A stretch of 56,031 nt of DNA, taken from the NCBI GenBank assembly GCA_018650085.1, contig JABIGQ010000039.1:1-56031 (forward strand), written 5' to 3'. A program made the position numbers and the translations under genes. Source of the stretch: Candidatus Magasanikiibacteriota bacterium (GTDB lineage: Bacteria > Patescibacteriota > Patescibacteriia > Magasanikbacterales > UBA922). The notes under the pieces were generated by a model that worked only from the letters and a program-made list of their open reading frames with translations, was not told the DNA's origin and did not search any database. Position 1 is the stretch's first letter; each line of letters begins with the position of its first letter. This document shows, in pieces, positions 6,864-56,031 of this stretch.

Positions 6864-7647
6864 AATTACCTACTAAATATCCCACCCCAAAAGGATATTC
6901 ATAAGAGTATCGTTTAAATTGATAATTTATTTCAGATAATATACCAAGTAAAATTAATATAGAACGATATCCACATTCTTGTGCAGCCTCTATCATTTTT
7001 TCATCCATAGTGAGTACCCCTACAGTGTTTTTTGTTTCAAGCATTTGCATAAGTCTTTTATCAAAAAATGCACCTTCTTTATCATGTGGAGCAGGGGAGT
7101 TTTTTGTTAGGCAATGAGATAAATCTCCAGAAGCAATAACTGCAATACGTTCTGGTCTTTCTTGAATAAATGATTGGAGAAATTGCCCAAACTGTAGGTG
7201 AGCTTTTGTGCTTAATTGAGAAAAACCAATAGGAACAATGCGGGTATCTTTCATATGTTCTGTCATGAAAAATAATGGAACACTGCTACCATGATCAAGT
7301 GTTTCATTGGCAATAAAACGAGTAGGAAGCTTTGCTTTGTGGCAGTTTGTAGAAAGTGCTTCTACAAACATAGGTGCTCCGTGCCAATGATGTGTTGTAG
7401 ATAAATCACCAAATTGTTCATATGTGGCAGTATATTTAGACGCAGCATTTATGCTAAATGTATCTTCAAATACTCCTTGGTGAGGAGAAATCATGATAAT
7501 AATATCTGGTTTTGCAATATAAAGATCACGTGCTAATTGTTCTAGCCCATCTAGTGTTTTTTCCAATGAGTCTTCTGCTTTTTCTTTTCCTATAGAAGGT
7601 AATAATATAGGAGCATGTGGAGTAATTCCTGCAAATACTAATGGCAT
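6850..7647 (-). CDS. class III extradiol dioxygenase-like (LigB/DODA family) protein
   Basis: 265 aa. N-terminus FAGITPHAPILLP, then ISPHQG, DHGSSVPLFF and IASGDLSH. This pattern is characteristic of LigB-fold proteins. It overlaps priA by 14 nt. Confidence 0.55.
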   Translation of the reverse strand: MPLVFAGITPHAPILLPSIGKEKAEDSLEKTLDGLEQLARDLYIAKPDIIIMISPHQGVFEDTFSINAASKYTATYEQFGDLSTTHHWHGAPMFVEALSTNCHKAKLPTRFIANETLDHGSSVPLFFMTEHMKDTRIVPIGFSQLSTKAHLQFGQFLQSFIQERPERIAVIASGDLSHCLTKNSPAPHDKEGAFFDKRLMQMLETKNTVGVLTMDEKMIEAAQECGYRSILILLGILSEINYQFKRYSYEYPFGVGYLVGNCELP

Positions 7648-7650
7648 ATA

Positions 7651-9918: not shown

Positions 9919-10013
9919 AGTACCTAACAGTATAGCATAATATCATGGTGTAAGCAATTGCGTTTTTAGTATAATTTTGGTATACTTTTAATGTTATTTT
10001 TATCTATATTTAT

Positions 10014-13970: not shown

Positions 13971-14978
13971 ATGTGGATAAAAAAGATTGGAATTGATCTG
14001 GGTACTACAAATATTTTAGTATTTCAACCAAAGCATGGGATTGTGGTAAATGAGCCATCTGTGGTCGCTATTTCTAAAGATGATAATCGTGTTTTGGCAG
14101 TAGGGATTGAAGCAAAAGATATGATAGGGAGAACGCCAGATAGTATAATTGCGGAGCGCCCGCTAAAAGATGGAGTGATAGCAAATTATAGAACTACAGA
14201 GGCTATGCTTCGTTATTTTATTAATAAAGCACTTGGTGGAATTCGTTTATTTCGTCCAGAAGTGATGATAGCAGTGCCAGCTGGGATTACTTCTACGGAG
14301 CGTAGAGCGGTGATAGATGCGGCCATGGCAGCAGGGGCAAGAGCAGCATATATTATAAAAGAACCAATTGTAGCAGCCATAGGGGCAGATATTCCTATTG
14401 GGACAGCTTCTGGTCATATGATTATAGATATTGGTGGTGGAACCAGTGAGATTGCTGTTATTTCTCTTGGTGGAATTGTGTCTTGTGGGTCAGTTCGTAT
14501 AGGCGGAACAAAATTCGATGCCTCTATTGCTGAGTTTATTAGAAAAAAATACGGATTAGCTATAGGGGATAGATCTTCAGAAGAAGTAAAAATTCATGTG
14601 GGTTCTGCTATGTATATGGAAACGCCATTGGAAATGGAAGTAAAAGGACGTGACATGATTACAGGACTTCCACGTACTATTACTGTAACTTCAAATGATA
14701 CAACAGAAGCACTCCAGCATGATTTGGAAGGGCTTATAGAAGCAGTAAAACAAGTACTTCATGATACACCACCAGAATTATCTGCAGATGTTATGGATAA
14801 GGGGATTATCATGTCTGGTGGGTCTAGTCTTTTACGTAATTTACATGAACTTATTGCTCAGGCTACAGGAGTGGCATGTTATGTAGCAGATGATGCACTG
14901 CTTTGTGTAGCAAAAGGGACAGGGATTGCATTGGAGAATTTAGATAATTATAAGAGAAGTATTGCAGCGACGAAGTAG
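13971..14978 (+). CDS. mreB: rod shape-determining actin homolog MreB
   Basis: 335 aa. IGIDLGTTN, the EPxxAAIGA-like PIVAAIGADIP, DIGGGTSEIAVISLGG and GIIMSGGSSLL. Confidence 0.9.
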   Translation: MWIKKIGIDLGTTNILVFQPKHGIVVNEPSVVAISKDDNRVLAVGIEAKDMIGRTPDSIIAERPLKDGVIANYRTTEAMLRYFINKALGGIRLFRPEVMIAVPAGITSTERRAVIDAAMAAGARAAYIIKEPIVAAIGADIPIGTASGHMIIDIGGGTSEIAVISLGGIVSCGSVRIGGTKFDASIAEFIRKKYGLAIGDRSSEEVKIHVGSAMYMETPLEMEVKGRDMITGLPRTITVTSNDTTEALQHDLEGLIEAVKQVLHDTPPELSADVMDKGIIMSGGSSLLRNLHELIAQATGVACYVADDALLCVAKGTGIALENLDNYKRSIAATK

Positions 14979-30668: not shown

Positions 30669-31406
30669 ATGGAAGAAAAAAAAGGATTTAACCAAATGCT
30701 CAACCAACTAACACCTGTACAAACATTTGCTCTTGGACTAACTCAAGGATTGCTTGTCCTGTGTACTATTGGTTTTTTCATGTTATTGGTAGGAGGAATT
30801 TCTATAAATAGTGAAACTGTAATGGCCGAAGGAACGCCTACTATTGTAAATCCAACTCCTACAGCAGCAGCTGGACAAGTAGCCCCAAGAGTAGTAGATG
30901 CAAAAGTGGACCATATTCTTGGAAATAAAGATGCAAAAGTAACTATTATAGAATATACAGATATTGATTGTCCATATTGTAAACGTTTTCAAACCACAAT
31001 GAATGAAGTTGTAGAGAAATATGGTGATAAAGTGCGTGTGGTACTTCGTCAATTCCCATTGGATGGTTTACACCCAAATGCACGAACAAAAGCACTTGCA
31101 ACAGAATGTGCAGGAGCACAAGGAAAATTCTGGGAATTCATAGATATATTATTTGATAGAGGAACAGATGTTTCTAGGCTTGCTGCAGTAGCAGGGGAGT
31201 TACGTTTAAATGTAAATACATTTAATAGTTGTCTAGCAGATAAAAGCTTTGCCTCAAAGGTACAAGCAGATGAAAGTGACGCCCAAAAAACGGGTGGTCA
31301 AGGGACTCCACATAGTTTGATTGTAGGGCCAAATGGGGAAGTGCAAGTAATAAAAGGAGCACAGCCATTGGAACAAATTGAACAAATGCTACTTCCATTG
31401 CTCTAA
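30669..31406 (+). CDS. membrane-anchored DsbA-like thiol:disulfide oxidoreductase
   Basis: 245 aa. A TM anchor, then a thioredoxin fold with the CxxC motif (DIDCPYCKRF) and GTPHSLIV (cis-Pro region). Confidence 0.75.
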   Translation: MEEKKGFNQMLNQLTPVQTFALGLTQGLLVLCTIGFFMLLVGGISINSETVMAEGTPTIVNPTPTAAAGQVAPRVVDAKVDHILGNKDAKVTIIEYTDIDCPYCKRFQTTMNEVVEKYGDKVRVVLRQFPLDGLHPNARTKALATECAGAQGKFWEFIDILFDRGTDVSRLAAVAGELRLNVNTFNSCLADKSFASKVQADESDAQKTGGQGTPHSLIVGPNGEVQVIKGAQPLEQIEQMLLPLL

Positions 31407-31430
31407 GAGTAATAACAAGATAAATCAAAA

Positions 31431-31458
31431 ATCCTACGACATGTCGTAGGATTTTTTT
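31431..31458 (+). terminator. intrinsic terminator of the dsbA-like gene
   Basis: Perfect palindrome ATCCTACGACATGTCGTAGGAT followed by TTTTTT, 25 nt after the stop codon. Confidence 0.75.
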
Positions 31459-32003
31459 ATATAACATATAAATAAGAAAAGCTTAGTGTCGCACAATGTA
31501 GAAAAGGGGAGCCTATTTATATAGCAGGGAAGTAGTGGTAGTGTTTTCTTATCTATTTTAATAACTTGCTACACTTGAACTTTTAATTAAATGAGCTGCT
31601 CCCAAACATAGCATGAAATATAATCTAAGAAAATATTTTTTATTAATTATTACTATTTATAAATGTAGATTTAATTTTTTTATATAAAAGATGAACCCTA
31701 GTACCTCTAGTTTTGAAGCGCTATTTCGTGGTGTCGCAAAACATAGTTTTCTTTGCTAAAACTAGCGAAATTTAGGACATGAGGTATGTGGCAAATAACA
31801 TGATTTAATCTATGGAAAATAAGATTATTTTTACTTATAAAACATAGTTTAAATATATAGATCTATTGCCTCATAGAACTGCACAGTAGCCCTTTACAGG
31901 CTGTATTGTAGGTTTGCTTGATTGTAATAACAACTATATTATTAGGGGTTATGTCGCATAAGATACATTGTGCGACATATGTATATTCTTATAAAAATCC
32001 TTT

Positions 32004-32048
32004 GGAGGTATGATAGATGAAACAACGTGTCTTATCTATCATACCTCC
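32004..32048. other. perfect 15-bp stem / 15-nt loop hairpin
   Basis: GGAGGTATGATAGAT-gaaacaacgtgtctt-ATCTATCATACCTCC. U-rich sequence follows on both strands. The left arm contains GGAGG and the ATG of the small + strand ORF. Confidence 0.8.
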
Positions 32049-32175
32049 TCTCCTCTTTAGTGTTTGTGTTACCTTAGTATATGCAGAGAGTGTATACCCG
32101 ACATGCGGCATATATACTCAGGAGGAAACAACTTGTCAAGAATATCTTCATCGAAGTTTCCATTTACCCTCCTAA
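32017..32175 (+). CDS. candidate small secreted peptide (52 aa) - uncertain
   Basis: My own reading, below the track size cutoff. GGAGG lies 8 nt before the ATG. The product is MKQRVLSIIPPLLFSVCVTLVYA|ESVYPTCGIYTQEETTCQEYLHRSFHLPS: a textbook n/h/c signal peptide and a 29-aa two-Cys tail. Against it: the RBS and start sit inside a perfect 15-bp hairpin, and the ORF overlaps an antisense small ORF. Confidence 0.3.
   Translation: MKQRVLSIIPPLLFSVCVTLVYAESVYPTCGIYTQEETTCQEYLHRSFHLPS
32074..32163 (-). CDS. candidate 29-aa hydrophobic Cys-rich peptide - speculative
   Basis: METSMKIFLTSCFLLSIYAACRVYTLCIY. The ATG lies 4 nt after the AGGAGG that ends repeat copy 1 when read on the minus strand. 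The 15-bp hairpin follows 26 nt after the stop. Confidence 0.2.
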   Translation of the reverse strand: METSMKIFLTSCFLLSIYAACRVYTLCIY

Positions 32176-32227
32176 GACAAAGGTAATGGGGCAAGCAAGT
32201 CTACTTGCCCAGTTTTAGGTTAATCCC
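32168..32227. repeat. structured direct repeat, copy 1 (60 nt)
   Basis: cctcctaagacaaaggtaatggggcaagcaagtctacttgcccagttttaggttaatccc. It has an outer helix CCTAAGAC/GTTTTAGG and an inner helix GGGCAAG/CTTGCCC. Confidence 0.85.
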
Positions 32228-32269
32228 CCTCCAGCACGCCGGCTCTTACGAGTGGCTGTAACTGGAGGG
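32227..32269. other. GC-rich hairpin
   Basis: CCCTCCAG-N27-CTGGAGGG, with an inner imperfect GCCGGCTC-ttac-GAGTGGC helix. Confidence 0.7.
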
Positions 32270-32281
32270 AGGAAAGAAATT

Positions 32282-32536
32282 CTATTCTAAGATTTTTACC
32301 AACACTTTGGCTAATCCAATTGCTAACCCTATACAGATCAGCCCTAATGCAATACACAAACCACAACCCGAAGAATCACAAGTAGTGTATGTAGCCTTAG
32401 GCGGAGGAGACTGGCAGCCCCCCCATTTTTGTACTTGTTGGATAGGAATTGGAGGAAGAGCTCCCATTTTGGCGGCAGCCTCCCTTTTTAAATTTTTTTC
32501 TCTTCCACGCTTTCTTCTCGTCTGCCTTGTGGCCAC
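32282..32536 (-). CDS. candidate 84-aa tail-anchored Cys-rich membrane protein - uncertain
   Basis: This is track ORF 32282..32569 trimmed to the GTG at 32536, which lies 6 nt after AGGAGG. Product: (M)ATRQTRRKRGREKNLKREAAAKMGALPPIPIQQ...CDSSGCGLCIALGLICIGLAIGLAKVLVKILE. It has a basic N-terminus and one C-terminal TM helix. An equally long antisense ORF exists, so coding status is unproven. Confidence 0.3.
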   Translation of the reverse strand: MATRQTRRKRGREKNLKREAAAKMGALPPIPIQQVQKWGGCQSPPPKATYTTCDSSGCGLCIALGLICIGLAIGLAKVLVKILE

Positions 32537-44026: not shown

Positions 44027-44152
44027 ATGTGTGTGTTATAAAACAAAAGATATCGACTATGAGCCGAATAAAATATATCCGCTTCACACGGATATATTTA
44101 TAGTATAACAGGTTTTGAAATTGTGTCAAATATTAATTAATATTTTTATATA

Positions 44153-44223: not shown

Positions 44224-45141
44224 TTGTCATACGAAGATACTCGAGAGTTTTTAATCAATCATCAAGAAAAGATACTTGATGATTTTCTAGATGGACAGTG
44301 GTGTAAAATGACCACAGGCTTTAGCCAATCTGCTTATACAGATTCACTACGTCAGGCTGACTATTTATTGCGTTACTATGGAATGTATTTTACATCTTAT
44401 TATGCAACATATAGAAGATTCTTAAGAAAGTATGAAGCAATATTTTCTCAGAAACGCCTGCATATCCTATCTATTGGGACAGGATCTGGTATTGATTTTT
44501 TTGCACTTAACCGTGCTATTGAAGATCTTCTCTTAGAAAATAAAATTAAAAGAAGACAACAATATCATTATACAGGAATTGATCCTGTAGCGTGGAATTA
44601 CCAGCCTATATCTACAAAATTTCATTTCAAACAAATAGATATTAAGAAACTTACTCCACAAGATATTGAAAATGTAGATCTCTTTATATTTCCTAGATCT
44701 TTATCCGATATAGAAAGAACAGATCCTTTATCTTTAACTCGTTTAGCACGTTTAGTTTCTAATCACACTAATCGAGATAGACTATTCTTTATAAACTCAT
44801 ATGTTGTACAGAACAGTCTTGATAAAGGGAAAAAAGTATTCGGAGTAAATGCTTTTTGTTCTCTTATAAAATCTTTTACTCAACATGGATGGAGAAATGT
44901 GAATTGCAAACCACAGGATCATTGTGGAATTATTCCAAAATATTCTACTCTTTCAGATCTACCGTTCTATGGTATACCTGATCGACTCACTGATATCCTT
45001 GGAATAAACTTAAAAGATGAATGTAAACACAAAAAACAAGGGGCTTTCTCTTGTAATTTTTGTAAAGAACAACTTTATATTATGAGAAAACTAAACAACA
45101 TAGCTTTCCATATTCATGAACTACAGCGAGATGAAGAATGA
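44224..45141 (+). CDS. SAM-dependent methyltransferase-like protein (class I fold), Cys-rich C-terminus
   Basis: 305 aa, TTG start with a strong SD. LHILSIGTGSGIDFFAL resembles methyltransferase motif I, and YTGIDPV the acidic end of strand 2. The C-terminus has CKPQDHC...ECKHK...CNFC. No DPPY/NPPY motif. Confidence 0.45.
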   Translation: MSYEDTREFLINHQEKILDDFLDGQWCKMTTGFSQSAYTDSLRQADYLLRYYGMYFTSYYATYRRFLRKYEAIFSQKRLHILSIGTGSGIDFFALNRAIEDLLLENKIKRRQQYHYTGIDPVAWNYQPISTKFHFKQIDIKKLTPQDIENVDLFIFPRSLSDIERTDPLSLTRLARLVSNHTNRDRLFFINSYVVQNSLDKGKKVFGVNAFCSLIKSFTQHGWRNVNCKPQDHCGIIPKYSTLSDLPFYGIPDRLTDILGINLKDECKHKKQGAFSCNFCKEQLYIMRKLNNIAFHIHELQRDEE

Positions 45142-46076
45142 TCATCAGCGCTAGCCGACGAACTGATATCCCTGCATTTTATGCTCCATGGTTTATAAAC
45201 CGAGTTCGTGCGGGATGTTTACTAACTCGAAACCCACGAAATGCAAATCAAGTACGACGAGTTTCTTTATATCCAGAAGACGTAGATGTTATTGTTTTCT
45301 GGACAAGAAATCCTCGCCCGCTCTTTCCTTTTTTGGCAGAGTTGGATTCGTTAGGATATAAGTACTACTTTCAGTACACCTTAACAGGATATCCTAGGAT
45401 ACTTGAACCACATGTACCCCAAACCAATAATGCTATTGAAGCCTTTTGTGATCTCAGTGATTACATTGGGCCTGATCGTATTATCTGGCGTTATGACCCT
45501 ATTCTCCTGTCAAACTATACAGGTCTAGACTATCATATCTCTACATTTCTAAAGCTTGCTACACAACTTGCTGGAAAAACTAGAAAAGTAGTGATTAGTT
45601 TTGCAGACCTTTATGGAAAGACAATTAGAAATCTAGACAAAGTTTCTGGTATCCAATATATGGATATACGTAAAACTCCAGGTCTTTTACATCTACTGTC
45701 AAACATAATCAGAATTGCAAAGTCGTTTGGTATGACCGTGGAAACATGTGCAGAAACATCTGTTTCCTCAAGCCTATCAATGACTAGAGGAAAGTGCATT
45801 GATGATGCACTTATCCAACGCGTATTTGGAATAAACCTCACAGTAAAAAAAGACCGAAGTCAAAGAAAAGCTTGTGGCTGTGTAGAAAGTGTTGATATTG
45901 GGCAATATAATACCTGCCTTCATGGATGCACATACTGCTATGCAACAACAAGCCTAGATGCTGTCCAAAAAAAAAGACAACAGCACAACCCAGATAGTCC
46001 CTTTCTTATTGGGGACTTACGGGAAGGAGAAGAAATGTTTTTATTAACTAAAAAGAAGCAAATGCCTCTCTTATAG
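45138..46076 (+). CDS. DUF1848 family protein (C-terminal Cys cluster, putative Fe-S)
   Basis: 312 aa. MIISASRRTDIPAFYAPWF N-terminus and C-terminal QRKACGCVESVDIGQYNTCLHGCTYCYA, as I recall for DUF1848. Its start overlaps the upstream stop (ATGA). Confidence 0.65.
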   Translation: MIISASRRTDIPAFYAPWFINRVRAGCLLTRNPRNANQVRRVSLYPEDVDVIVFWTRNPRPLFPFLAELDSLGYKYYFQYTLTGYPRILEPHVPQTNNAIEAFCDLSDYIGPDRIIWRYDPILLSNYTGLDYHISTFLKLATQLAGKTRKVVISFADLYGKTIRNLDKVSGIQYMDIRKTPGLLHLLSNIIRIAKSFGMTVETCAETSVSSSLSMTRGKCIDDALIQRVFGINLTVKKDRSQRKACGCVESVDIGQYNTCLHGCTYCYATTSLDAVQKKRQQHNPDSPFLIGDLREGEEMFLLTKKKQMPLL

Positions 46077-46102
46077 TTGATGAGAACCCACTGTTCATTT
46101 TA

Positions 46103-46125
46103 AGATAGGGGTTCATCCCCTATCT
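46103..46125 (+). other. hairpin downstream of the DUF1848 gene
   Basis: AGATAGGGG-ttcat-CCCCTATCT. Confidence 0.6.
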
Positions 46126-46137
46126 TACCGCCACGTC

Positions 46138-46167
46138 ATCCCTAGCGCAGTTGCCTAGGGATTTTTT
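46138..46167 (+). terminator. intrinsic terminator of the 44224..46076 operon
   Basis: ATCCCTAG-cgcagttgc-CTAGGGAT running into TTTTTT. Confidence 0.7.
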
Positions 46168-46294
46168 ATTATAAAGCACAATACTAATTGGGATCATCCA
46201 AATAATGTATATAGCTATTCCTATGTATAACTGCATAAAATAATATTAATAAAACATATTAAAGCACTATGGAGCCAGCTGGCAAATCCTATTT

Positions 46295-46852
46295 CTAAAT
46301 CTTATAATCCTTAACAAACTGAGGTTTCGCCATTATCTTTTTACATTTAGGACATTCTGTCATTTCGTTTATGGTCTTATCTTCCCAAGCATCAAAACAA
46401 AGTGGACATTCATACCAAGTTTTTTCTTCATCTAATACTTTTGTTACGTCTTTAAAGATTGGATTATAGTATTCTATGTCCATTAAGTGTTTGTATTTTA
46501 GGAAGATTTTTTGATACTTTTTACTTAATTCTTCGTCTTCTCCATCTGTCATGTTCCAAAGAAAAAAATCATCTGTGAAGTATTCTTGGAAACAGTACTC
46601 TGCTATTTTTTTCACACACCCATCATCATCAATATGTTTTTGCAAATTAAATACAAAATGTCTAGAAATACGATTATCTAAAATATTATATCTATTCATA
46701 TCTACACTCAAAGCACTAGTAGGTGCAATATCAGAAATAAGTAAACGCACTTGATCAATATCAATACTATGATCAACATAAAGATAATTTTCTATACCGT
46801 ACACAACAAAAAACTCCTTTAGGTTTTTATCTGTTTTTCTCCCAATAAACAT
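46295..46852 (-). CDS. hypothetical protein with C-terminal zinc ribbon (CPLC...CPKC)
   Basis: 185-aa ORF, the last gene of the minus-strand string that begins with the RHS toxin. No family recognised. Confidence 0.45.
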   Translation of the reverse strand: MFIGRKTDKNLKEFFVVYGIENYLYVDHSIDIDQVRLLISDIAPTSALSVDMNRYNILDNRISRHFVFNLQKHIDDDGCVKKIAEYCFQEYFTDDFFLWNMTDGEDEELSKKYQKIFLKYKHLMDIEYYNPIFKDVTKVLDEEKTWYECPLCFDAWEDKTINEMTECPKCKKIMAKPQFVKDYKI

Positions 46853-47028
46853 ATAATTAAAATTTAAAACCTGTCTTTCCTAATAAAATGATCTCATTTG
46901 TAATCTTATCTATTACCAAAGACTTTCCACTATTTGGATCAATAATTCTCAATATTTCATTACCTAGATTTAAATAATTAATCCCTTTATGTATCAAGCG
47001 TATACCATTATTAATGGTATTATTTTTT

Positions 47029-47379
47029 TCATTCTTTAAAAGCTTCTACAACAATATTGAATGCATCTAAAGATTTACCTACTAAATATTTTTGTGCAAT
47101 ACTAATTCCATCCTCAGAATCACTAAGTAACTCAAATGTACCTGTCATAACCAGATCATAAGCAGAACTATCACCACTATTTATTAAAGAATCTAACAAG
47201 TCAAAGCAAGACTTCAAAAGTATTTCATCTTTTTTATCAGCTAATTCTTTTATATACGTAGCTAATGCCCCAAAAACCATATATGGCAAATCTATATCCT
47301 CATCGGTATTCCGTGCATACATTTCAAATTCCGGGATAATTTTAAATAATTTTTTAACTATATTTTGATTAGTCATCAT
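47029..47379 (-). CDS. candidate cognate immunity protein of the RHS toxin
   Basis: 116 aa, acidic, predicted helical. Its ATG lies 4 nt after the RHS stop codon, which is the canonical toxin-immunity placement. Confidence 0.55.
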   Translation of the reverse strand: MMTNQNIVKKLFKIIPEFEMYARNTDEDIDLPYMVFGALATYIKELADKKDEILLKSCFDLLDSLINSGDSSAYDLVMTGTFELLSDSEDGISIAQKYLVGKSLDAFNIVVEAFKE

Positions 47380-47383
47380 ACTA

Positions 47384-50300
47384 TTAATTTAATGCATTTA
47401 ATAAATCATTCAATAATTCTTGAGCTATAGATCTATCTGAAACAGATATATTCTCCCTCCCTAAAAATTTTCTCAATGCATTCACTGAATCTTGTCCTTT
47501 TTGTATATGATTACTACCACCTATTAATTCTCCTGTTATTTTCGTATGACGTATTGCATCAGCAGTTCCTCCGTCTCCATACTTTGCAGAACTCCTATAA
47601 TTCCTTTCAATTATACTTCGCAACTTTTGGTGCTGTACTTTTGATAAAAGATTCCCTCTTCTCGTATTCAATAATTTAATATTTGGGTCAACCCTTCTAA
47701 AATCATTAATATCTACATCTAACCCTCTTACTACACTGCCACGAAGAGATCTAGTAGGAACAAAAGGTAATTCACCTCCCATTAAAAATAACATTGCATC
47801 TAATTCCGTAAACTCATCCCCAGAAAACAAATATCTTCCTGTAATAGCTCCATATGCTTCAGATATATCACCTGTTATTGGAAAAGAATCTAATAATACA
47901 TCATAACCTGAATCATACATATCTGAATTTATATACCTAGGTGTAGAATTCATAGATGTAGAATCTGAACCATATCCATAATCAAATCCATAAGAATAAT
48001 TTGCTAGATTAAAATCCTCCCCAATCATCCCCGTAGGATCCACATACTTCAAAGGATTATTCTTCACATACACATACCTATTTCTCGACAAGACATCTCC
48101 ATCTCTACCCATATAAGAGTCTCGTGAAATAAATCTTCCAGTCTTTGGATTGTAATACCTAGCATTATAATAATACAATTCACTCTCAAAATCCTGCTCT
48201 TGGTTAGTGAAAAGATAGTTTGTTGTTTGTGTCCCTTCATACCCTATTGTACCACCAAATGCGTCATATTCATACATTCCTACTATTTCTGAAGATTCAT
48301 CTGTTAGTAGTACTGTACTTCCTAATACATCTGTATGTATATATGTTATTTCATCCTCTGCATCAATCTCTGCAATCATTTCTATGCCGTAAATATTTGT
48401 TTTACTCACAACACCCGCACTATCTAGTTCATTAAGAACTCGAAGTCCATCATTAATATAATAACTCGCTTCATTATTTACGGATTTTTTTATCCTATTT
48501 CCATAGTCATCATACGCAAAACTTACTGTATTTTGACTAGCACTTGGAAGAAAATTTGGTCTGCTATTGTCTGTGTAACTAATCTGAGAAAGCCTGTTTT
48601 CTGCATCCCAAACATAATCTACCGTTTTAAGTGGATCCCCACCTCTAGTATACACTTCTTGCGTAAGACTTCCATTTCCATCATAAACATTTGATACTGC
48701 AAGTGTATTATTTACCGTATAACTTGCTAGTTCATTTGTATTGAGAGCGTAAGTGTAATTTGTCGTGTCTGTATTGTTTACATAAGTTGTCCTATTCCCC
48801 CACTTATCATACGTATACGTCTGATCCACTCCTGCCCCAATAATTGTATAATCTACTGTTTTGAGCTGGTCGAGCGTATCGTATGTATAATCTATTATTC
48901 TAGTATTATTTTCTACTACACGTGTCCTATTATGCTCTGCATCATACGTGTAGTCATGACTCCACACTGTTTCTGCTTGTGGATTTACTATTGTTTGTGT
49001 TTCTAATCGTTGCAAGTCATCATATACATAATTAGTTGTATAATTATTTGCATATGTTAAACTTGCTGGTTTCCCAAAACTAGTATAACCATACGTTGCC
49101 AAAGGCTGCCCAAGATAATTTACTGTTTGGAGAAATCCTCTATTGTTATACGTATATGTTATTGTTTTTCCAGAAGCATCAGTCAAGCTTGCTGGACTTG
49201 AGTCTGTGTTATATGTTCTTGTAATTATTTTTGAATTCTCAGGCAAATCTGAAAATCTTTGTACTTCCTGTGTTTGTCTATTGAGATCATCATACGTATA
49301 GTTAGTTGTCAGCTCTAACGTAACACTTTGCGTATTGTTCCCCCAATTGTCATAAATATATGTTGACTGTGTTTCATCTGAAAATGTTTTTGATACAATT
49401 TGTCCAAGCACATCATACACATATGTAATTGTACTATTTTCTCCATCTACTTTTGTAATAATATTCCCTTCTGCATCATACGTATAATGTTCTGTTTTAT
49501 TTCCTAAACTAGTTACTTGCGTCACTCTATTTAAATCATCATACAGAAAACTAGTCACATGCCCATCTACATTTTCAGACAATCTATTTCCATTATTATC
49601 ATAGGTATATATTGTTTGGGTTCCTTGTACATTGGTTTCACTTGTAAGCTGATCTAATTTATTATACACAAAACTAGTGCTATTTCCTTTTTTATCTATT
49701 CTACTAGTAATATTTCCATGCCCATCATAAACAAGAGTACTCGTATTATTATACGCATCTATTGTATCTGTTTTTCTATGTCCTGTATCATAGATATAAT
49801 CTACGGTTGTATTATCTGCATAGGTAATTCCTGTTTGATTTCCTTGTGCATCATAGGTATATCTCGTAATATTTCCTCCATTATCTTCTTCTGAAATAAG
49901 TCTATTAAATTCATCATAGATATATGTAGTAACCCTGCTTTCTTTATCTGTAACTGTCAAAACATTACCCAGGGCATCATAAGTATAGCTAATACTATTA
50001 CCATAAGCATCTGTTTCTGTTAGCTTTCTTCCTAATTTGTCATAAGTATAACTCACTGTATGAGTATTGTTTAAACCATCTGCCGATTGACGGTCTATCA
50101 TATTTGTCAAATCACCACGTGCATTATATGTAAAAATACTTTCTGTATCATCTGCATAACGAATACGGATTCGTCGCCCTGCTTCATCATAGTCATATGT
50201 TATCGTATTTCCATCACTATTACATAATCCTACATCCATCAAACAACGATCTTGTTTTTCACCAACTCTATTCCCTATTGCGTCATACACATATTCTATA

Positions 50301-53300
50301 TGATGGCCCACTTCATTTTCTTCTTCAACTAATTGGTTATTTGCATTGTATTCAAATACAGTCCTATTCCCATTTGGATCTATTACTCGTATTTGATTTC
50401 CAAAACCATCATACACATATTGTATTGATACAAAATCAATAGCAGTAGAATATGCACGTTCTTCCATTATCTGATTTCGTGCATCATAGATATATACTTT
50501 TTTTCTTCCTTCTATATCTGTTTCTTCTTTGAGGTTTCCTTTTGCATCATAAATATAATCTATTGTCAAAACAGGTGTTATTTTTTGACTGATTCTTCCA
50601 TTATCATCATAGACATAACTTATTTCATTACCATTCGCATCTGTTTCGGTTACTAATCTTCCAAGGTTATCATAATCTTTACTTGTCACAATATCTGCTT
50701 GTGTAAGACCAATTTGTTTTGTCTCAAGCAAACTTGCAGATATATCTGTTGCATATACAAATTCTGTACGTTGATTATTTTCATTTACCCTTGCTGTTCT
50801 GTGTCCTTCTATATCATATTCATATGTTTTTATTCCTCCGAGTGGATTTGTTTCGGTAAGAATATTGTTTTGATTGTCATATGTGTAAGTATATACTTCT
50901 CCCATTGGGTCAGTATAAGTTTCTCTATTTCCAAAGACATCATAAGTATATGTTTTTGTTATAGTTTCTTGTTGATTATCTGCATCTGTTACTGTTTTAC
51001 TTTCTGTTAATCTATAATTTCCATTTACATCGTATGTGTAGGTTATAATGTTACTATTCTTATCTGTGTGAGTAAGTATATTCCCATATTGGTCATAAGT
51101 ATAGCTTTCTGTATTCCCCATTGGGTCAATTACAGATAAAATATTCCCATCTGTTGGGTCTATAGTATAGCTTGTTACTTTCTCATCATAAAGTTCTGCT
51201 TGGACTACCCCGTCTATGATTTCATATACTTGTTCTCGTTTTTCTTGGATTCTATTGAAAGCTCCATAAGTATATGTTATTTTTGTTCTCCAGTTTTCTG
51301 TATTTGGTAATATTGTGCTTACAACTCTTCTATCTGTATCATAAGTATATCCTGTTGTTTTATTGTTTTGGTCTGTTTTGGATATCACCATTCCTTCTGC
51401 ATTTCTTGTTTGGGTTATAGTATTTCCATCGGTATCAAATTGAGCAACTTTTAAATGTTTGTCACTATAACAATATTTCTCTAATGTAAAATTGACTTCA
51501 TCACTATAATTTTTTACAAGTGTACAATAACTATCTCCTGTAACAGCAGGATCTTCTCCTAGATACGCCAATGTCCAAACCAAGCGTTTTTCTCCTACTT
51601 GATCTTTATCTGAATTATATTCATGCTGAACTGTCGTACGCCCTTCTGCATCATATGTATTATATAAAATAGTTCCACGAGCATCAGTATATGTATATAA
51701 TCTATATACATCAGTATCTACATATTTTGCATAAGTAAAACTATCTGTTTTTATTGTTGTTACTCCATCTGTTATAATTGTTTTTCTTACTTCTTTGAGT
51801 ACTGGGATTTCTGAATCTAATGTTTCATAGATATAATCAATTGTTGCACTATTATTTGGGTCTCCTGAATTATATGTAACTTTTGTTACTTTATCCCAAC
51901 GTTTATCATCAGTAATTTCTCCATAGGTAAATGTTATTTCTCGCCCAGAAGAATCTACTACTTGGGTAAGCATATCTACATTTCTTTTTTCTGTATAATT
52001 GAATATTGTCGCATTAGCATTGGTATCTTCAATCCTCTCAAGCAAGCCCATATTGTCTGTGAGCTTTAGAGAATAATAATATTTCATTCCTGATAACTTT
52101 TCTAAAATAAGAAATGTTTCTGTTGCATCATTATATAATTTGTCTGTCTGTCCTGCTGATACATATTTTCCATCAACCATTTCAAATATATTTGCTACTG
52201 TTCCCCCTTTGTATACCACAACTTTTCCGCTTGTTGGGTCTTTATAATAATATTGATTATATGAATATTTCCATCCCAATCCAAAACGAGCATTTTTTAT
52301 AGTTTTACTATTATAATATCTGGTTAAATCTATTGATTCTCCACGACCTGACAATTGTAGGTCTGTCTGTGTTAGTTCAAATGATCCTGTTCTGGCATCT
52401 ACTGGATCTGCTACTGGAGTCATTTCTCCATTTGAATTCTCTTGACTTTGGCTATCGTCTGTTGGATTTACATCAACAATTCCCTCTGTAGTTCCTCCTA
52501 GTCCTTCTTCTAACTCTACTATTCCATCCCCATCATTATCTGCTGTGGTGTGTGTTGGATTAGAAGAACCTGAACCACTTTGAGGAGATTTAGTAGTAAA
52601 ATACCATTGGCTACTAGGAAAATATCCTTCTGCTCCATCATTATCCCGTGCTTTTACTCGCCAATAATACCGTGTTCCATATGATAAATTACTCACACCA
52701 AATACAGAGTTATTATTCCCAATCCATTCTGAATAAAAATCTGTACCAGAAAAATACTGATCTGTACTTATTTCTACAAAATAATCTACAATTGATCCAT
52801 CTGGATCTGAACATCCCCAGTCAAGATTTAATGATAAATTTTGATTTGATGCAGTAATATTAGGGGAAACAATGGTACAACGACTTGGGACTTGATTAAT
52901 GTCTACTTCTATGTATGCTGTATTATTATCTTCATTTAATTCTATAATATTTTCATTATCATCTATCTGAAATAAAATATAGTTACTCCCTAAATAATCC
53001 AGACTTTCTGGCAATGGTAGAGGATTCGATACATCTATATATTCACCAGAAGCTAAAGAACTAATATTTCTTGAATTAAGCGGAAAATCATTATCATCAA
53101 CAACCGTATCTGTAGACAAATAATATTGTAATGTAAATAAATTATTTATATCTCCCCCGCTATTTCTTATACGCACACTCGCTGTCGGCACATCTCCAAC
53201 AATTAATGATACATCCTCAACACTTTGGTCTTCTAAAATTAAATCTGGCAAATCTTGTAAATTAAAATTTACAATTCTTGAAAAAAGAATATCATCCTCA

Positions 53301-55903
53301 TTATAATCATCATTTTGGGCAATCTCTACTAAATCACTATCATATAAATGCATATATGTATCTGGCTCCCCATTTGTAGGACCCGATGTTTGAATCGTCA
53401 CAACACTGCCTGAACGAGAAAAAGATAAGTGATATGTTCCTATTTCTGTATCCCTATAACCTCGTACTTTAATATAATAATTTTTTCCATCATATATAAA
53501 ACGATACCAATCTTCATCTGCTTCTGTAAGATATGAATTATTACGTGTATAACTTGTACTAGAACCAAGATATTCAGCAGAGCCACTTGAATCATTTGGT
53601 TCATATGGATCTAAAATCGGTTCACTAATAGTAACCTCTTCATAGACAACATTATTTTCTTCATTTGACTCCCCTACAACCCCAGCTTTATCTGCACGAA
53701 ATAAAATATAATATGTTCCTGGCCCATTATATGTTGAATCTGCTGCTAAAAAATTTTCAGAAAATGTTATATTTGTATATTCATCATTATAACCTTGAGA
53801 AGACAAAGCATCTACACTATCTGATGCAATAAGATAATCCAATTGATCCCATTGAGTATCTCGAGATAAATAATAGCCCACAGAGGATGCACCACTATCA
53901 TCACTTCCTTGATTAAGAATACGTACATCCAATCGTACTGCGTCTCCTACAGTAATAGCATCATCACTCACATCTCTTGTACTTGGAATCAAATCAATAT
54001 TAGTTTCTGTAAGAAGTACTCTAATATATGGGGCATAATCACCAGCTTCCTCTTGAGCATTAAATACTAATAACCTATCTTTCCAACTTGCAGGAGGAGT
54101 ATTTCCTGATGACCATTCTTCACTAGGCTCTAACAGTACTCCCCAATTTATTTCTCCTCCCTTCCATTGTCTCACTGAATTTGTTATGTCAAAACTTACC
54201 CATCTTTGTGTCTCAGAACTATCGAATGTATCTATTGATTCATTTTCTTTTTCCAAGTGTTCACGAAAATATGGATAAGATAATGATGAAATATTATATG
54301 GCGGCCATGCTTTTGTAACCCGCTTTGCTTCTAAATTAACAACTTGATCACTCCCCTCACCAAAATTGTGATAATACATTTTTAATTGTGCATTATCCAC
54401 ATCTCCTGGAAGATTCATATAATCAGCAGCTGCAGCGACTATAAGATGCCGAGTATAATCATTTACTCCATTTACCAAGCGTCCAGTATATAATCTACCT
54501 TCAAACTCTTCTTCCGCAGAAGGATTTTGTGCCCCCCCATTTACCGCACGAAGATAAAAATCAAATTGATTACAATCCAAATAATATCTTCCACTATAAT
54601 TTTCTTTACATGGATAATATACAGGATCAATAATAACTGGATATACCCGTTCTTTTGCTGTTAAATATGAACCAGGAACTTCCAATCCAATTCTCATTTT
54701 TCTTAACTCATAATCTACTTCTACAATCTGATCCAATCCAATATGAGACAATTCACCATACATTGAAGTATCTTCTTGAGAATCAAACATAATTGCCCCA
54801 GTAATTCTTAACTCACTTTGATCTGGAAAAACAATTCTAACATTTTCATTATTCTGTAAAATTTGCGTACCCTTTATTCTATCTTCTCCTACCAAAACAT
54901 CACTCCCTTTGGGAAATTCATATTCTTCCCAAAACAAAAGTTTATCTTTTAAGGAAATATCTTCTGGCTCTGATTGTATTATTATTTTCCTTTCTCTACT
55001 AAACGCTTTATCATGAAATAACACATCTACATTCGGATACATATTTTTAATTGTAGAAATAGATGTGTTATTTTCTTTTGTATAAGAAACAGTCCCTGAT
55101 ACGGGTTTTTTTATGTAGGAATTTTCATCAACTGAATCAACTTTTTCTAAATTTCCTGCACTAATAGCCACCGAATATCCTTCTTCTGACGTTGGTGTAT
55201 CATACTGATACCCAACATATTTTTCTACAGACTGAAACCTTGACTTATCCGCATCTTGAAATAAACTCCAATCTTTTGAACGAAGAAAAGTTTCACCATT
55301 TTTTTCATCAATTTGCACTGGTCTAGGTGTCTGATAAATATGCCATATTTGATCTCCATTTTCTTTATACGCAACATCACGCACACTATCTACTACATGG
55401 AACTCTAGATCTTCATTCAATTTTTCAACCTTTTCTTCCTCCACAAACAAACTCTTCACTGGTTCAATAATTTCTTCTGTAACAAAATCCACAACTTTAT
55501 CAAAAAAACTTTCTTCTTTAGTTAATTCTTTTGCTTCTTCCTCTTCTACAATAAAGTCAAGCGAATTTGCACCGCTAACTTCTTCAAGTGGCATGAGAAT
55601 TGCTTGCTCTGGTTTAATATCAGATACAGTCGTTGTTGTAAATATAGAAGATTCTTCAGATTGTACAACAACGTCCTCTTCTACTTCTACATCTGTAATA
55701 ATGCTTGTTTCTGTACTTGTCGGCACAGGCTCTACTAAATTTTCTATAGCAATATGTTCAATATCTACACTTTCTTCTTCTACAACAATAATATTATCCA
55801 CAGAAGTACTCGTGGAAATACTCTGCGCAAAAACAGACACAGTAGGGAATAAAGCAAAGTATATACTAAACACTATAAATGTATATTGTTTTATTTTTTT
55901 CAT
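47384..55903 (-). CDS. Sec-signal RHS/YD-repeat polymorphic toxin (2839 aa)
   Basis: Signal peptide MKKIKQYTFIVFSIYFALFPTVSVFAQS. RHS onset ADPVDARTGSFELTQTDLQL...RYYNS. Dozens of YD repeats (YTYDxxGN). Core end YYNARYYNPKTGRFISRDSY...NPLKYVDPTGM at 48026..48040. A 213-aa C-terminal extension follows. Confidence 0.9.
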   Translation of the reverse strand: MKKIKQYTFIVFSIYFALFPTVSVFAQSISTSTSVDNIIVVEEESVDIEHIAIENLVEPVPTSTETSIITDVEVEEDVVVQSEESSIFTTTTVSDIKPEQAILMPLEEVSGANSLDFIVEEEEAKELTKEESFFDKVVDFVTEEIIEPVKSLFVEEEKVEKLNEDLEFHVVDSVRDVAYKENGDQIWHIYQTPRPVQIDEKNGETFLRSKDWSLFQDADKSRFQSVEKYVGYQYDTPTSEEGYSVAISAGNLEKVDSVDENSYIKKPVSGTVSYTKENNTSISTIKNMYPNVDVLFHDKAFSRERKIIIQSEPEDISLKDKLLFWEEYEFPKGSDVLVGEDRIKGTQILQNNENVRIVFPDQSELRITGAIMFDSQEDTSMYGELSHIGLDQIVEVDYELRKMRIGLEVPGSYLTAKERVYPVIIDPVYYPCKENYSGRYYLDCNQFDFYLRAVNGGAQNPSAEEEFEGRLYTGRLVNGVNDYTRHLIVAAAADYMNLPGDVDNAQLKMYYHNFGEGSDQVVNLEAKRVTKAWPPYNISSLSYPYFREHLEKENESIDTFDSSETQRWVSFDITNSVRQWKGGEINWGVLLEPSEEWSSGNTPPASWKDRLLVFNAQEEAGDYAPYIRVLLTETNIDLIPSTRDVSDDAITVGDAVRLDVRILNQGSDDSGASSVGYYLSRDTQWDQLDYLIASDSVDALSSQGYNDEYTNITFSENFLAADSTYNGPGTYYILFRADKAGVVGESNEENNVVYEEVTISEPILDPYEPNDSSGSAEYLGSSTSYTRNNSYLTEADEDWYRFIYDGKNYYIKVRGYRDTEIGTYHLSFSRSGSVVTIQTSGPTNGEPDTYMHLYDSDLVEIAQNDDYNEDDILFSRIVNFNLQDLPDLILEDQSVEDVSLIVGDVPTASVRIRNSGGDINNLFTLQYYLSTDTVVDDNDFPLNSRNISSLASGEYIDVSNPLPLPESLDYLGSNYILFQIDDNENIIELNEDNNTAYIEVDINQVPSRCTIVSPNITASNQNLSLNLDWGCSDPDGSIVDYFVEISTDQYFSGTDFYSEWIGNNNSVFGVSNLSYGTRYYWRVKARDNDGAEGYFPSSQWYFTTKSPQSGSGSSNPTHTTADNDGDGIVELEEGLGGTTEGIVDVNPTDDSQSQENSNGEMTPVADPVDARTGSFELTQTDLQLSGRGESIDLTRYYNSKTIKNARFGLGWKYSYNQYYYKDPTSGKVVVYKGGTVANIFEMVDGKYVSAGQTDKLYNDATETFLILEKLSGMKYYYSLKLTDNMGLLERIEDTNANATIFNYTEKRNVDMLTQVVDSSGREITFTYGEITDDKRWDKVTKVTYNSGDPNNSATIDYIYETLDSEIPVLKEVRKTIITDGVTTIKTDSFTYAKYVDTDVYRLYTYTDARGTILYNTYDAEGRTTVQHEYNSDKDQVGEKRLVWTLAYLGEDPAVTGDSYCTLVKNYSDEVNFTLEKYCYSDKHLKVAQFDTDGNTITQTRNAEGMVISKTDQNNKTTGYTYDTDRRVVSTILPNTENWRTKITYTYGAFNRIQEKREQVYEIIDGVVQAELYDEKVTSYTIDPTDGNILSVIDPMGNTESYTYDQYGNILTHTDKNSNIITYTYDVNGNYRLTESKTVTDADNQQETITKTYTYDVFGNRETYTDPMGEVYTYTYDNQNNILTETNPLGGIKTYEYDIEGHRTARVNENNQRTEFVYATDISASLLETKQIGLTQADIVTSKDYDNLGRLVTETDANGNEISYVYDDNGRISQKITPVLTIDYIYDAKGNLKEETDIEGRKKVYIYDARNQIMEERAYSTAIDFVSIQYVYDGFGNQIRVIDPNGNRTVFEYNANNQLVEEENEVGHHIEYVYDAIGNRVGEKQDRCLMDVGLCNSDGNTITYDYDEAGRRIRIRYADDTESIFTYNARGDLTNMIDRQSADGLNNTHTVSYTYDKLGRKLTETDAYGNSISYTYDALGNVLTVTDKESRVTTYIYDEFNRLISEEDNGGNITRYTYDAQGNQTGITYADNTTVDYIYDTGHRKTDTIDAYNNTSTLVYDGHGNITSRIDKKGNSTSFVYNKLDQLTSETNVQGTQTIYTYDNNGNRLSENVDGHVTSFLYDDLNRVTQVTSLGNKTEHYTYDAEGNIITKVDGENSTITYVYDVLGQIVSKTFSDETQSTYIYDNWGNNTQSVTLELTTNYTYDDLNRQTQEVQRFSDLPENSKIITRTYNTDSSPASLTDASGKTITYTYNNRGFLQTVNYLGQPLATYGYTSFGKPASLTYANNYTTNYVYDDLQRLETQTIVNPQAETVWSHDYTYDAEHNRTRVVENNTRIIDYTYDTLDQLKTVDYTIIGAGVDQTYTYDKWGNRTTYVNNTDTTNYTYALNTNELASYTVNNTLAVSNVYDGNGSLTQEVYTRGGDPLKTVDYVWDAENRLSQISYTDNSRPNFLPSASQNTVSFAYDDYGNRIKKSVNNEASYYINDGLRVLNELDSAGVVSKTNIYGIEMIAEIDAEDEITYIHTDVLGSTVLLTDESSEIVGMYEYDAFGGTIGYEGTQTTNYLFTNQEQDFESELYYYNARYYNPKTGRFISRDSYMGRDGDVLSRNRYVYVKNNPLKYVDPTGMIGEDFNLANYSYGFDYGYGSDSTSMNSTPRYINSDMYDSGYDVLLDSFPITGDISEAYGAITGRYLFSGDEFTELDAMLFLMGGELPFVPTRSLRGSVVRGLDVDINDFRRVDPNIKLLNTRRGNLLSKVQHQKLRSIIERNYRSSAKYGDGGTADAIRHTKITGELIGGSNHIQKGQDSVNALRKFLGRENISVSDRSIAQELLNDLLNALN

Positions 55904-55925: not shown

Positions 55926-56031
55926 TTATTCAACTACTGATTCTATAAAGACATTATCCACCCACAGCTCACCATTTCCTACAAACTCATGATGAGGGGC
56001 TTCATATATTTGTCCTTCATATTCAATTTCC
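55926..56031 (-). CDS. 3' end of an upstream ORF (5' part outside the window)
   Basis: My translation gives ...EIEYEGQIYEAPHHEFVGNGELWVDNVFIESVVE*. The stop TAA at 55926..55928 lies 22 nt before the RHS start. Confidence 0.4.
   Translation of the reverse strand, partial: EIEYEGQIYEAPHHEFVGNGELWVDNVFIESVVE

Follow-up and report, generated by a model that had tools for sequence, protein, structure and literature searches.

A predicted Sec-exported RHS polymorphic toxin system on an accessory island of a Magasanikbacteria-like CPR bacterium

RHS polymorphic toxins are a well-known class that has Sec-dependent members, and the N-terminal domains found on RHS proteins are of many kinds. WapA of Bacillus subtilis has an N-terminal Sec signal, no trafficking domain of the type VI or type VII secretion systems (T6SS, T7SS), a YD-repeat shell, a variable C-terminal toxin after the Rhs core, and an immunity gene (WapI) immediately downstream, and one of its defining features is a set of CWB2 wall-binding repeats. 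The T6SS Rhs effectors RhsA, RhsP, Tse5 and Tre23 combine an Rhs shell with a C-terminal aspartyl autoproteolysis motif, and the TcB-TcC cocoons of the Tc toxins (YenC2, TcdB2-TccC3) and bacterial teneurin-like proteins share the Rhs core and the principle of encapsulating a cargo and then cleaving it. Here we analyse a gene of this kind in a 56,031-nucleotide stretch of DNA (positions 1 to 56,031 of contig JABIGQ010000039.1, assembly GCA_018650085.1, Candidatus Magasanikiibacteriota bacterium), referred to in its full length as the window. The gene lies at 47384-55903 on the minus strand, as do all features given below by window coordinates unless another strand is stated. We propose, with a probability of about 0.7, that it encodes the toxin of a Sec-exported RHS polymorphic toxin system, which belongs to a Magasanikbacteria-like bacterium of the candidate phyla radiation (CPR), sits on an accessory island of ~14.6 kb and antagonises other bacteria.

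The RHS gene is a single, uninterrupted open reading frame (ORF) of 2839 codons, 15% of the window, and encodes an RHS polymorphic toxin of 2839 aa (~322 kDa, pI 4.4). An earlier note on this DNA, made from the letters alone, had described it as an 8.5-kb gene taking up about 15% of the window and had read in it a Sec signal peptide, a stack of adhesin-like domains and an RHS core; searches with Pfam and NCBIfam hidden Markov models (HMMs), which that note had called for, have now borne out most of these segments. The RHS shell (aa 1166-2626; 48026-52408) opens with DUF6531 (aa 1166-1225) and continues as a YD-repeat tract of ~1400 aa (RHS_repeat PF05593, E=9e-85 in 18 stretches; YD_repeat TIGR01643, E=9e-67) up to the Rhs-associated core (TIGR03696, E=2e-19, aa 2546-2626), which ends in DPTGM (aa 2622-2626). 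The repeats and the core, on which the earlier note had staked its reading, are thus both found by domain searches. In a PDB sequence search the shell matched 13 solved chain sequences, all Rhs, Tc or teneurin-like, and the best matches were the T6SS effectors RhsA (7Q97), RhsP (8H8A), Tse5 (8CP6) and Tre23 (7PQ5), with E-values of ~1e-40 to 1e-30. Over its last 130 aa the core aligns with YenC2, TccC3, Tse5 and RhsP, best with YenC2 and TccC3, and both autoprotease Asp residues (in RFISRD and VDPTGM) are conserved in the alignment to YenC2, TccC3 and Tse5. Since many solved shell fragments, which are post-cleavage chains, end exactly at the residue aligned with M2626, we place the predicted autoproteolytic cut between M2626 and I2627; the site is assigned by homology, and the protein would be expected to cleave itself there.

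Could so long and repetitive a gene be a pseudogene in decay or a product of misassembly? Coverage of the matching metagenomic contig is low and YD-repeat DNA is repetitive, but the frame stays open over 8.5 kb, an identical protein is present in an ENA assembly (contig NODE_290), and the protein is collinear over its whole length with homologs of 68% and 41% identity from independent assemblies; we regard this explanation as barely credible. An interruption of the frame by a frameshift, which the earlier note had raised against itself, is likewise unlikely given that a collinear homolog with 68% identity exists.

Cleavage after M2626 would release a C-terminal cargo of 213 aa (aa 2627-2839; 47387-48025) that consists of a Y/G/S-rich linker, a PT-TG-like stretch and a terminal domain of ~95 aa (aa ~2745-2839; 47387-47671), which we propose is the toxin. 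This domain is all-helical and basic (pI 10.1), with the motif YR..A..GDGGTADAIR...TG...H..KG...DL..AL, and AlphaFold2 models it as six helices with a predicted local distance difference test score (pLDDT) of 83. In the window protein it has no match in Pfam or NCBIfam and no sequence relative in the PDB, and Pfam scans of 93 other family members returned nothing attributable to the shared domain, one member also carrying Ntox10. Nevertheless, the family is large: a word-indexed search gave 11 homologs, and a profile scan of 1.84 billion representatives gave 2252 at E<=1e-3, or 1350 at the stricter limit of E<=1e-10. Among the best 150, which are proteins of 80-2322 aa, the domain is C-terminal practically throughout, and the recognisable modules ahead of it are RHS, DUF637 (CdiA-like, with a POTRA protein encoded upstream), PT-VENN, PT-HINT, PT-TG and phage MuF, which is the standard polymorphic-toxin repertoire. 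Across 160 aligned family members H2799 and K2802 are invariant and Y2769, R2770, G2776, G2778, D2782 and R2785 are 93-99% conserved, and the conserved residues surround a glycine-rich loop at the N-terminus of a helix. By these sequence comparisons the domain is a predicted polymorphic-toxin family for which Pfam, NCBIfam and the PDB hold no catalogued model. From the glycine-rich loop at a helix N-terminus, the Arg, His and Lys residues, the basic charge and the acidic immunity protein described next, we infer that the substrate bears phosphate, and that the cargo would act in the cytoplasm of the target cell, most likely on RNA or DNA.

The strongest evidence that this domain is a toxin comes from the gene that follows it. 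Starting 4 nt past the RHS stop codon, a gene at 47029-47379 encodes a 116-aa protein of the DUF7674 family (PF24722, 43.9 bits against a cutoff of 27, E=2.9e-11), with a pI of 4.3 and without a signal peptide. In each of six other independent loci a DUF7674 gene also comes directly after the toxin domain, overlapping it or lying within ~100 nt, and the contexts of these pairs include two free-standing cassettes, a locus beside BREX, an RHS protein with a transglutaminase N-terminus and a CdiA-like protein. It is this pairing across unrelated scaffolds that leads us to assign the domain as the toxin and DUF7674 as its predicted cognate immunity protein; the pairing is given by conserved synteny, and DUF7674 would neutralise the toxin. 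The same evidence bears on whether the RHS protein could instead be a non-toxic, teneurin-like surface adhesin or structural protein whose C-terminus has no killing function. The long adhesin-like N-terminus and the teneurin-like proteins among the PDB matches would suit such a role, but the Rhs core and its DPTGM site are intact, and the C-terminal domain is always terminal, stands behind known pre-toxin modules, is strictly paired with a small downstream gene, and is swapped among otherwise collinear homologs, which together make an adhesin very improbable.

The pair also occurs in settings of its own. Free-standing toxin ORFs of 139-148 aa were found in four of our collected loci (L004, 2331-3886; L005; L006, 5336-6775; and L007), and this free-standing form consists of three overlapping genes, DUF4417, toxin and DUF7674, an arrangement that looks toxin-antitoxin-like or suggestive of a use in defence. 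At L002 / L003 (6001-6970) a toxin ORF and a DUF7674 gene adjoin BrxA, BrxB and BrxC together with CTD6/MC2 conflict-system genes, which is a defence island. Downstream of another RHS gene with the toxin/DUF7674 pair (L090, 11656-13075) there is an orphan Ntox24-like ORF with an Imm53 gene, an array of classic spare toxin/immunity cassettes that is absent from the window locus; indeed, no orphan toxin or immunity cassettes were found in the window. Located 176 nt downstream of the immunity gene is orf185 (46295-46852), which has a C-terminal CxxC...CxxC arrangement of zinc-ribbon type. It matched no family in Pfam and NCBIfam scans, the related loci contain no homolog of it, and it may or may not be part of the toxin system. 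Neither the toxin, the immunity protein nor orf185 had a match in a PADLOC scan, and a promoter and terminator scan of 45900-47500 gave nothing above the shuffled expectation.

At the other end of the protein, the leader (aa 1-26; 55826-55903) was recognised by inspection and hydropathy. It consists of MKKIK, a hydrophobic core that is the sole hydrophobic window of the protein, and a predicted cleavage site between VFA and QS, and inspection revealed no lipobox Cys in it. The leader fits a Sec/SPase I signal, and the Sec signal peptide of the earlier note stands on its n-, h- and c-regions and the VFA-QS site. The eight cysteines of the protein form four closely spaced pairs and a DsbA-like gene is present within the window, which fits an extracytoplasmic protein. 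As in WapA, therefore, an N-terminal Sec signal precedes a YD-repeat shell and an Rhs core with a variable C-terminal toxin, the immunity gene lies immediately downstream, and the genes for FemAB, Mur ligase and PBP2 in the context indicate a monoderm-type producer. The RHS protein contains no PAAR, VgrG, LXG or WXG domain, and among the ORFs scanned in the window and 10 kb beyond there is no T6SS or T7SS gene, as the earlier note had seen for the window. It is this lack of a PAAR, prePAAR or VgrG-binding region, of a chaperone and of T6SS genes, with a Sec leader in their place, that distinguishes the protein from the T6SS Rhs effectors, which it resembles in its shell, in its autoproteolysis motif and in the aligned shell end. 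It likewise shares the Rhs core and the encapsulate-then-cleave principle with the Tc cocoons and the bacterial teneurin-like proteins, and differs from the Tc toxins in that it lacks a TcA translocator, a TcB beta-propeller gate and an ADP-ribosyltransferase cargo of the insect type: the TcA, TcB, SpvB and MidN families gave no match, DUF6531 precedes the shell instead, and the cargo family is otherwise found on antibacterial scaffolds (CdiA-like, MuF).

Between the leader and the shell lies an N-terminal stack that differs from that of WapA. It begins with an acidic low-complexity spacer (aa 27-165; 55409-55825) that is rich in E, V, S, I and T and has a net charge of ~-32, followed by a conserved module of unrecognised fold that is mostly beta-strand (aa 166-465; 54509-55408). 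No match to this module was found in Pfam or NCBIfam, and a profile search against PDB sequences found nothing; a mutarotase-like beta-supersandwich (as in GH38, GH92 and GH63) was considered as a candidate fold and set aside, the Foldseek match being unreliable (E~0.04, TM 0.2). The next segment (aa ~470-629; 54017-54496) is a DNRLRE/CBM96-like domain, as the earlier note had proposed: scanned alone, it matches NCBIfam NF033679 with E=3.9e-12 and 46.5 bits against a cutoff of 34, and Pfam CBM96 weakly at the same position (E=1.4e-4). The two CARDB-like segments read in the letters were both recovered by PF07705 (E=1.7e-16, two stretches), one at aa ~638-757 (approximate limits; 53633-53992) and the other, which gives the best stretch, at aa 886-995 (52919-53248), and the two copies match each other. 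The segment between them (aa 766-885; 53249-53608), which had been called PPC-like, did not fare as well. It carries an EPND...DEDWYRF motif, which is kept in the homolog of 68% identity, where the segment itself is also 68% identical, and beyond this motif the searches found no trace of a PPC domain: Pfam, NCBIfam and PDB sequences gave no match up to E<=10, and a filter-free phmmer search against the collected proteins, one of them PPC-annotated, gave nothing. The FN3/Ig-like domain (aa 1016-1092; 52628-52858) is a borderline case, with an fn3 E-value of 5.5e-5 in its favour and a score of 23.7 bits, just below the cutoff of 25, on the other side. The calcium-loop-like DNDGDG motif is present as read (aa 1122-1127; 52523-52540), and DxDGDG is kept in both full-length homologs. 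A DNRLRE/CBM96 domain upstream of DUF6531 and a shell is also seen in Actinobacteria (for example P0190 of Nocardiopsis suaedae, annotated as "DNRLRE domain-containing protein"), but there the identity is 25% over the shell only, and neither the aa 166-465 module nor the CARDB pair nor the toxin is held in common.

The closest relatives of the protein are found in other CPR bacteria. One is a protein of 2465 aa with 68% identity (P0161; KKG22_02440 of Patescibacteria group bacterium GCA_018814165.1, annotated as "hypothetical protein, partial") and the other a protein of 2629 aa with 41% identity (P0162; KBD59_03330 of Candidatus Gracilibacteria GCA_018061065.1, "hypothetical protein"). Collinearity of the three full proteins extends from the N-terminal module over DNRLRE, CARDB, DxDGDG and DUF6531 to the shell. 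P0161 has neither the acidic spacer nor the second CARDB; in P0162 the spacer is nearly unaligned, CARDB units are more numerous, and PPC-like and FN3 units are missing. The module at aa 166-465 is common only to P0161 (72%), P0162 (36%) and a partial ORF in locus L092, a partial fourth member from a 0.2-um groundwater metagenome, and among all proteins collected only P0161 (72-76%) and P0162 (34-36%) share the wider region of aa 166-640. A word-indexed homolog search with aa 165-640 came back empty, which is a false negative given that P0161 and P0162 share the region; of two metagenome scans, the first, which used the N-terminal module in its full length, was empty, and the second gave L092 and one remote hit. 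Identity over the shell is 60-85% to P0161 and 30-55% to P0162 and collapses right after DPTG, and the C-terminal toxins and downstream genes of both homologs are unrelated to those of the window. Hence, the survey of related genomes that the earlier note suggested shows the N-terminal stack kept and the C-terminus swapped.

A second gene accompanies the RHS gene in these bacteria. Its 3' end, including the TAA stop, lies at 55926-56031, and the remainder is beyond the window (7144-9978 in the coordinates of L001, a locus that extends past the window end); the gap between it and the RHS start codon is 22 nt. The product is a secreted protein of 944 aa with an FG-GAP-like N-terminus, an Ig-like domain and three CBM_4_9 domains. 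All three CPR loci encode homologous proteins of 800-944 aa with a signal peptide and three CBM_4_9 domains, the full-length identity to the protein encoded here being 43% in one of the two related loci (L088) and 27-30% in the other (L089). The gene lies directly upstream of the RHS gene in the window locus and L088, whereas in L089 it is found 2.5 kb downstream. This conserved secreted partner, the N-terminus composed of the unassigned module, DNRLRE, two CARDB domains and an FN3-like domain, the much greater length (2839 aa) and a toxin from an uncatalogued helical family in place of the known WapA tRNase C-termini all set the system apart from WapA. In L088 (2388-5438) the cassette is directly downstream of PrgI, TraC-like and VirB4-like type IV secretion genes, and in L089 (11-3850) it is just downstream of type IV pilus genes (T2SSE, T2SSF and an N_methyl pilin). 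The next-nearest RHS relatives, P0163 and P0164 (27% identity), adjoin genes for MobL/TraG (relaxase/coupling protein) or a recombinase. The three CPR cassettes occupy different genomic places, which, together with the conjugation and recombinase neighbours, suggests that this RHS clade travels on mobile DNA.

These neighbours raise the question of whether Sec by itself accounts for export or delivery or whether a dedicated machine is needed, which could be a type IV secretion system, a conjugative element or a T7SS encoded elsewhere. The position of the L088 cassette and the neighbours of P0163 and P0164 speak for such a machine. On the other hand, a Sec-type leader is present on all three CBM_4_9 partners and on the RHS proteins encoded in the window, in L088 and in L092 (the P0162 ORF as called has none), no such machine is encoded in the window or within 10 kb beyond it, and proximity to conjugation genes is more simply read as carriage on mobile DNA. 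We therefore consider a dedicated machine improbable and retain Sec as the proposed export route.

The producer is indeed a CPR bacterium, as the "CPR-like" of the earlier note had it, by both taxonomy and conserved synteny. The lysyl-tRNA synthetase (LysRS) encoded 4 kb from the RHS locus has 474 relatives in GTDB genomes; its best match (85%) is from a metagenome-assembled genome (MAG) of a "Patescibacteria group bacterium", and those from Candidatus Magasanikbacteria and Parcubacteria MAGs match at 70-78%. The neighbourhood is one of housekeeping and a monoderm-type wall, with aminoacyl-tRNA synthetases, GreA, a Mur ligase, two FemAB proteins, FtsQ, PBP2 and MreBCD, and the gene order in related MAGs is MreB-MreC-MreD-PBP2-GreA-LysRS-cytidylyltransferase-Ham1/NUDIX-SerRS-hydrolase. 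In these relatives ~200-320 bp separate GreA from PBP2 or, in the closest one (L008), from a sulfatase gene that follows PBP2; here ~14.6 kb is inserted between the sulfatase and GreA. The insert contains the genes for the 944-aa secreted CBM_4_9 protein, the RHS protein, DUF7674 and orf185 and, on the opposite strand, orf305 and a DUF1848 protein, and within 10 kb none of 80 related loci has any portion of the RHS or immunity gene or of orf185. By comparison of these sequences the ~14.6-kb region is an accessory island, missing from the conserved backbone of all syntenic relatives. Its G+C content does not stand out, and no integrase, tRNA or convincing terminal repeat was found at its borders. 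An 18-nt AT-rich inverted repeat, 94% complementary, is located in both intergenic regions that bound the island (6949-6966 and 21754-21771 in L001, the latter at ~44133-44150 of the window) and is probably due to chance in AT-rich DNA.

Based on these data we propose the following mechanism. The precursor, as its signal peptide suggests, would be exported unfolded via Sec, and outside the cell the YD-repeat region would fold into an RHS cocoon around the last 213 aa, whereupon the Asp pair of the Rhs core (RFISRD...VDPTGM) would cut after M2626. Judging from the domain types, the N-terminal stack and the secreted partner with its three CBM_4_9 domains would bind glycans on a neighbouring cell, the cargo would enter that cell and act in its cytoplasm, probably on nucleic acid, and the acidic DUF7674 protein would neutralise the cargo in the cytoplasm of the producer and its kin. 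Wall anchoring, the delivery route and the target are steps that we infer. The role would be to antagonise other bacteria, be they competitors or sibling CPR cells, and possibly the host, at short range or on contact. Episymbiosis is common among CPR, and it is conceivable that the system is aimed at the host of an episymbiont, whose wall glycans would be recognised and which would be killed or disabled for nutrients. That the organism is a CPR bacterium by LysRS, that there are glycan-binding domains in both the toxin N-terminus and the conserved partner, and that the related cassettes adjoin type IV secretion (L088) or type IV pilus genes (L089) are in line with such a target. However, a cytoplasmic immunity gene implies that the toxin harms cells like the producer; the toxin/DUF7674 pair is found on CdiA-like, RHS and MuF scaffolds and in free-standing cassettes of unrelated bacteria, which is typical of bacterial competition and conflict; and the island is missing from the closest relatives, so it is not core to the lifestyle. 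A host-directed system is therefore unlikely in our view, without being negligible, and it is compatible with the mechanism proposed above. The victim may be a competitor, a sibling CPR cell or the host, and we favour general antibacterial antagonism because the immunity gene is cytoplasmic and the same pair is present in many free-living bacteria.

Several observations weigh against the system as proposed. The earlier note envisaged WapA-like, wall-associated delivery, and this is unsupported: no CWB2, SLH, LysM, LPXTG or choline-binding match was detected by Pfam or NCBIfam in the whole protein or its pieces. Unlike WapA, the protein may, with no recognised wall anchor, be released rather than held at the surface, and surface retention and contact dependence would be conjecture. 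An unlinked secretion system elsewhere in the genome is conceivable, since the scan covered the window and 10 kb beyond. Foldseek searches of the toxin model against the PDB and BFVD returned only generic helical bundles (E>0.3), and at aa 2787 (47545-47547), a position occupied by Glu in 84% of the 160 family members, the window protein has Thr (IRHTKITG as against IRHElxTG). That the activity is nuclease-like is guessed from the charge and the conserved residues, the PT-TG-like stretch of the cargo (aa 2666-2703) is weak (Pfam, E=0.013), and the AlphaFold2 model of the N-terminal module, made from an alignment of three sequences, is unusable (pLDDT 42). NODE_290 (62.6 kb) is the one matching public contig found, with ~6.7x coverage; it covers part of the window only, and by its coordinates would end near ~23.2 kb of the window, so that the window belongs to a different and longer record from the same organism. 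Toxicity, cleavage and export are all predictions from sequence.

Other features of the island and the window deserve mention. The genes orf305 and DUF1848 overlap each other on the plus strand (44224-46076). The DUF1848 protein matches PADLOC RTasDUF1848 (DRT-associated) with E=1.3e-53, and orf305 has a weak RT_UG35 match (E=0.0017) and no Pfam match to a reverse transcriptase, so that the two may be a defence gene pair. Cumulative GC skew peaks at ~31000-32300 of the window, where gene orientation switches from plus to minus, and the convergence resembles a replication terminus. There are two MreB genes ~45 kb apart, one at 13971-14978 (plus strand) in a glycosyltransferase/DUF4012 cluster and the other, at 717-1721 in L001, in a canonical mreBCD-PBP2 operon.

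The essence of our proposal is that an RHS toxin of known type is combined here with parts that are new, namely a CPR-restricted N-terminal module with a conserved CBM_4_9 partner, and a widespread toxin domain, absent from Pfam, NCBIfam and the PDB, with DUF7674 as its immunity partner; there is, moreover, sequence evidence for predicted RHS toxins in at least three CPR lineages (Magasanikbacteria-like, another Patescibacteria and Gracilibacteria). Our literature search found no paper mentioning DUF7674 and none describing RHS toxins of CPR bacteria, and as the search was incomplete a prior description is possible. More tentatively, and with the odds rather against it, the toxin domain and DUF7674 might constitute a widespread toxin-immunity family, not described before, whose fold and biochemical activity are new, and the RHS protein and its partner with three CBM_4_9 domains a CPR-specific two-component weapon that recognises the wall glycans of a host or competitor. 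The orphan Pfam family DUF7674 would now be linked to a function, immunity, and the toxin domain, with more than 2000 representative clusters over RHS, CdiA-like, MuF and free-standing contexts, is small (~95 aa) and directly testable. Much of the diversity of bacteria is found among the CPR, yet to our knowledge next to nothing has been learned of the ways in which they fight or exploit other cells. The proteins described here are concrete candidate molecules for the contact between CPR cells and other cells, and the two-component weapon, if that more tentative reading is true, would be the first polymorphic-toxin delivery system to be described from episymbiotic bacteria of ultra-small size.

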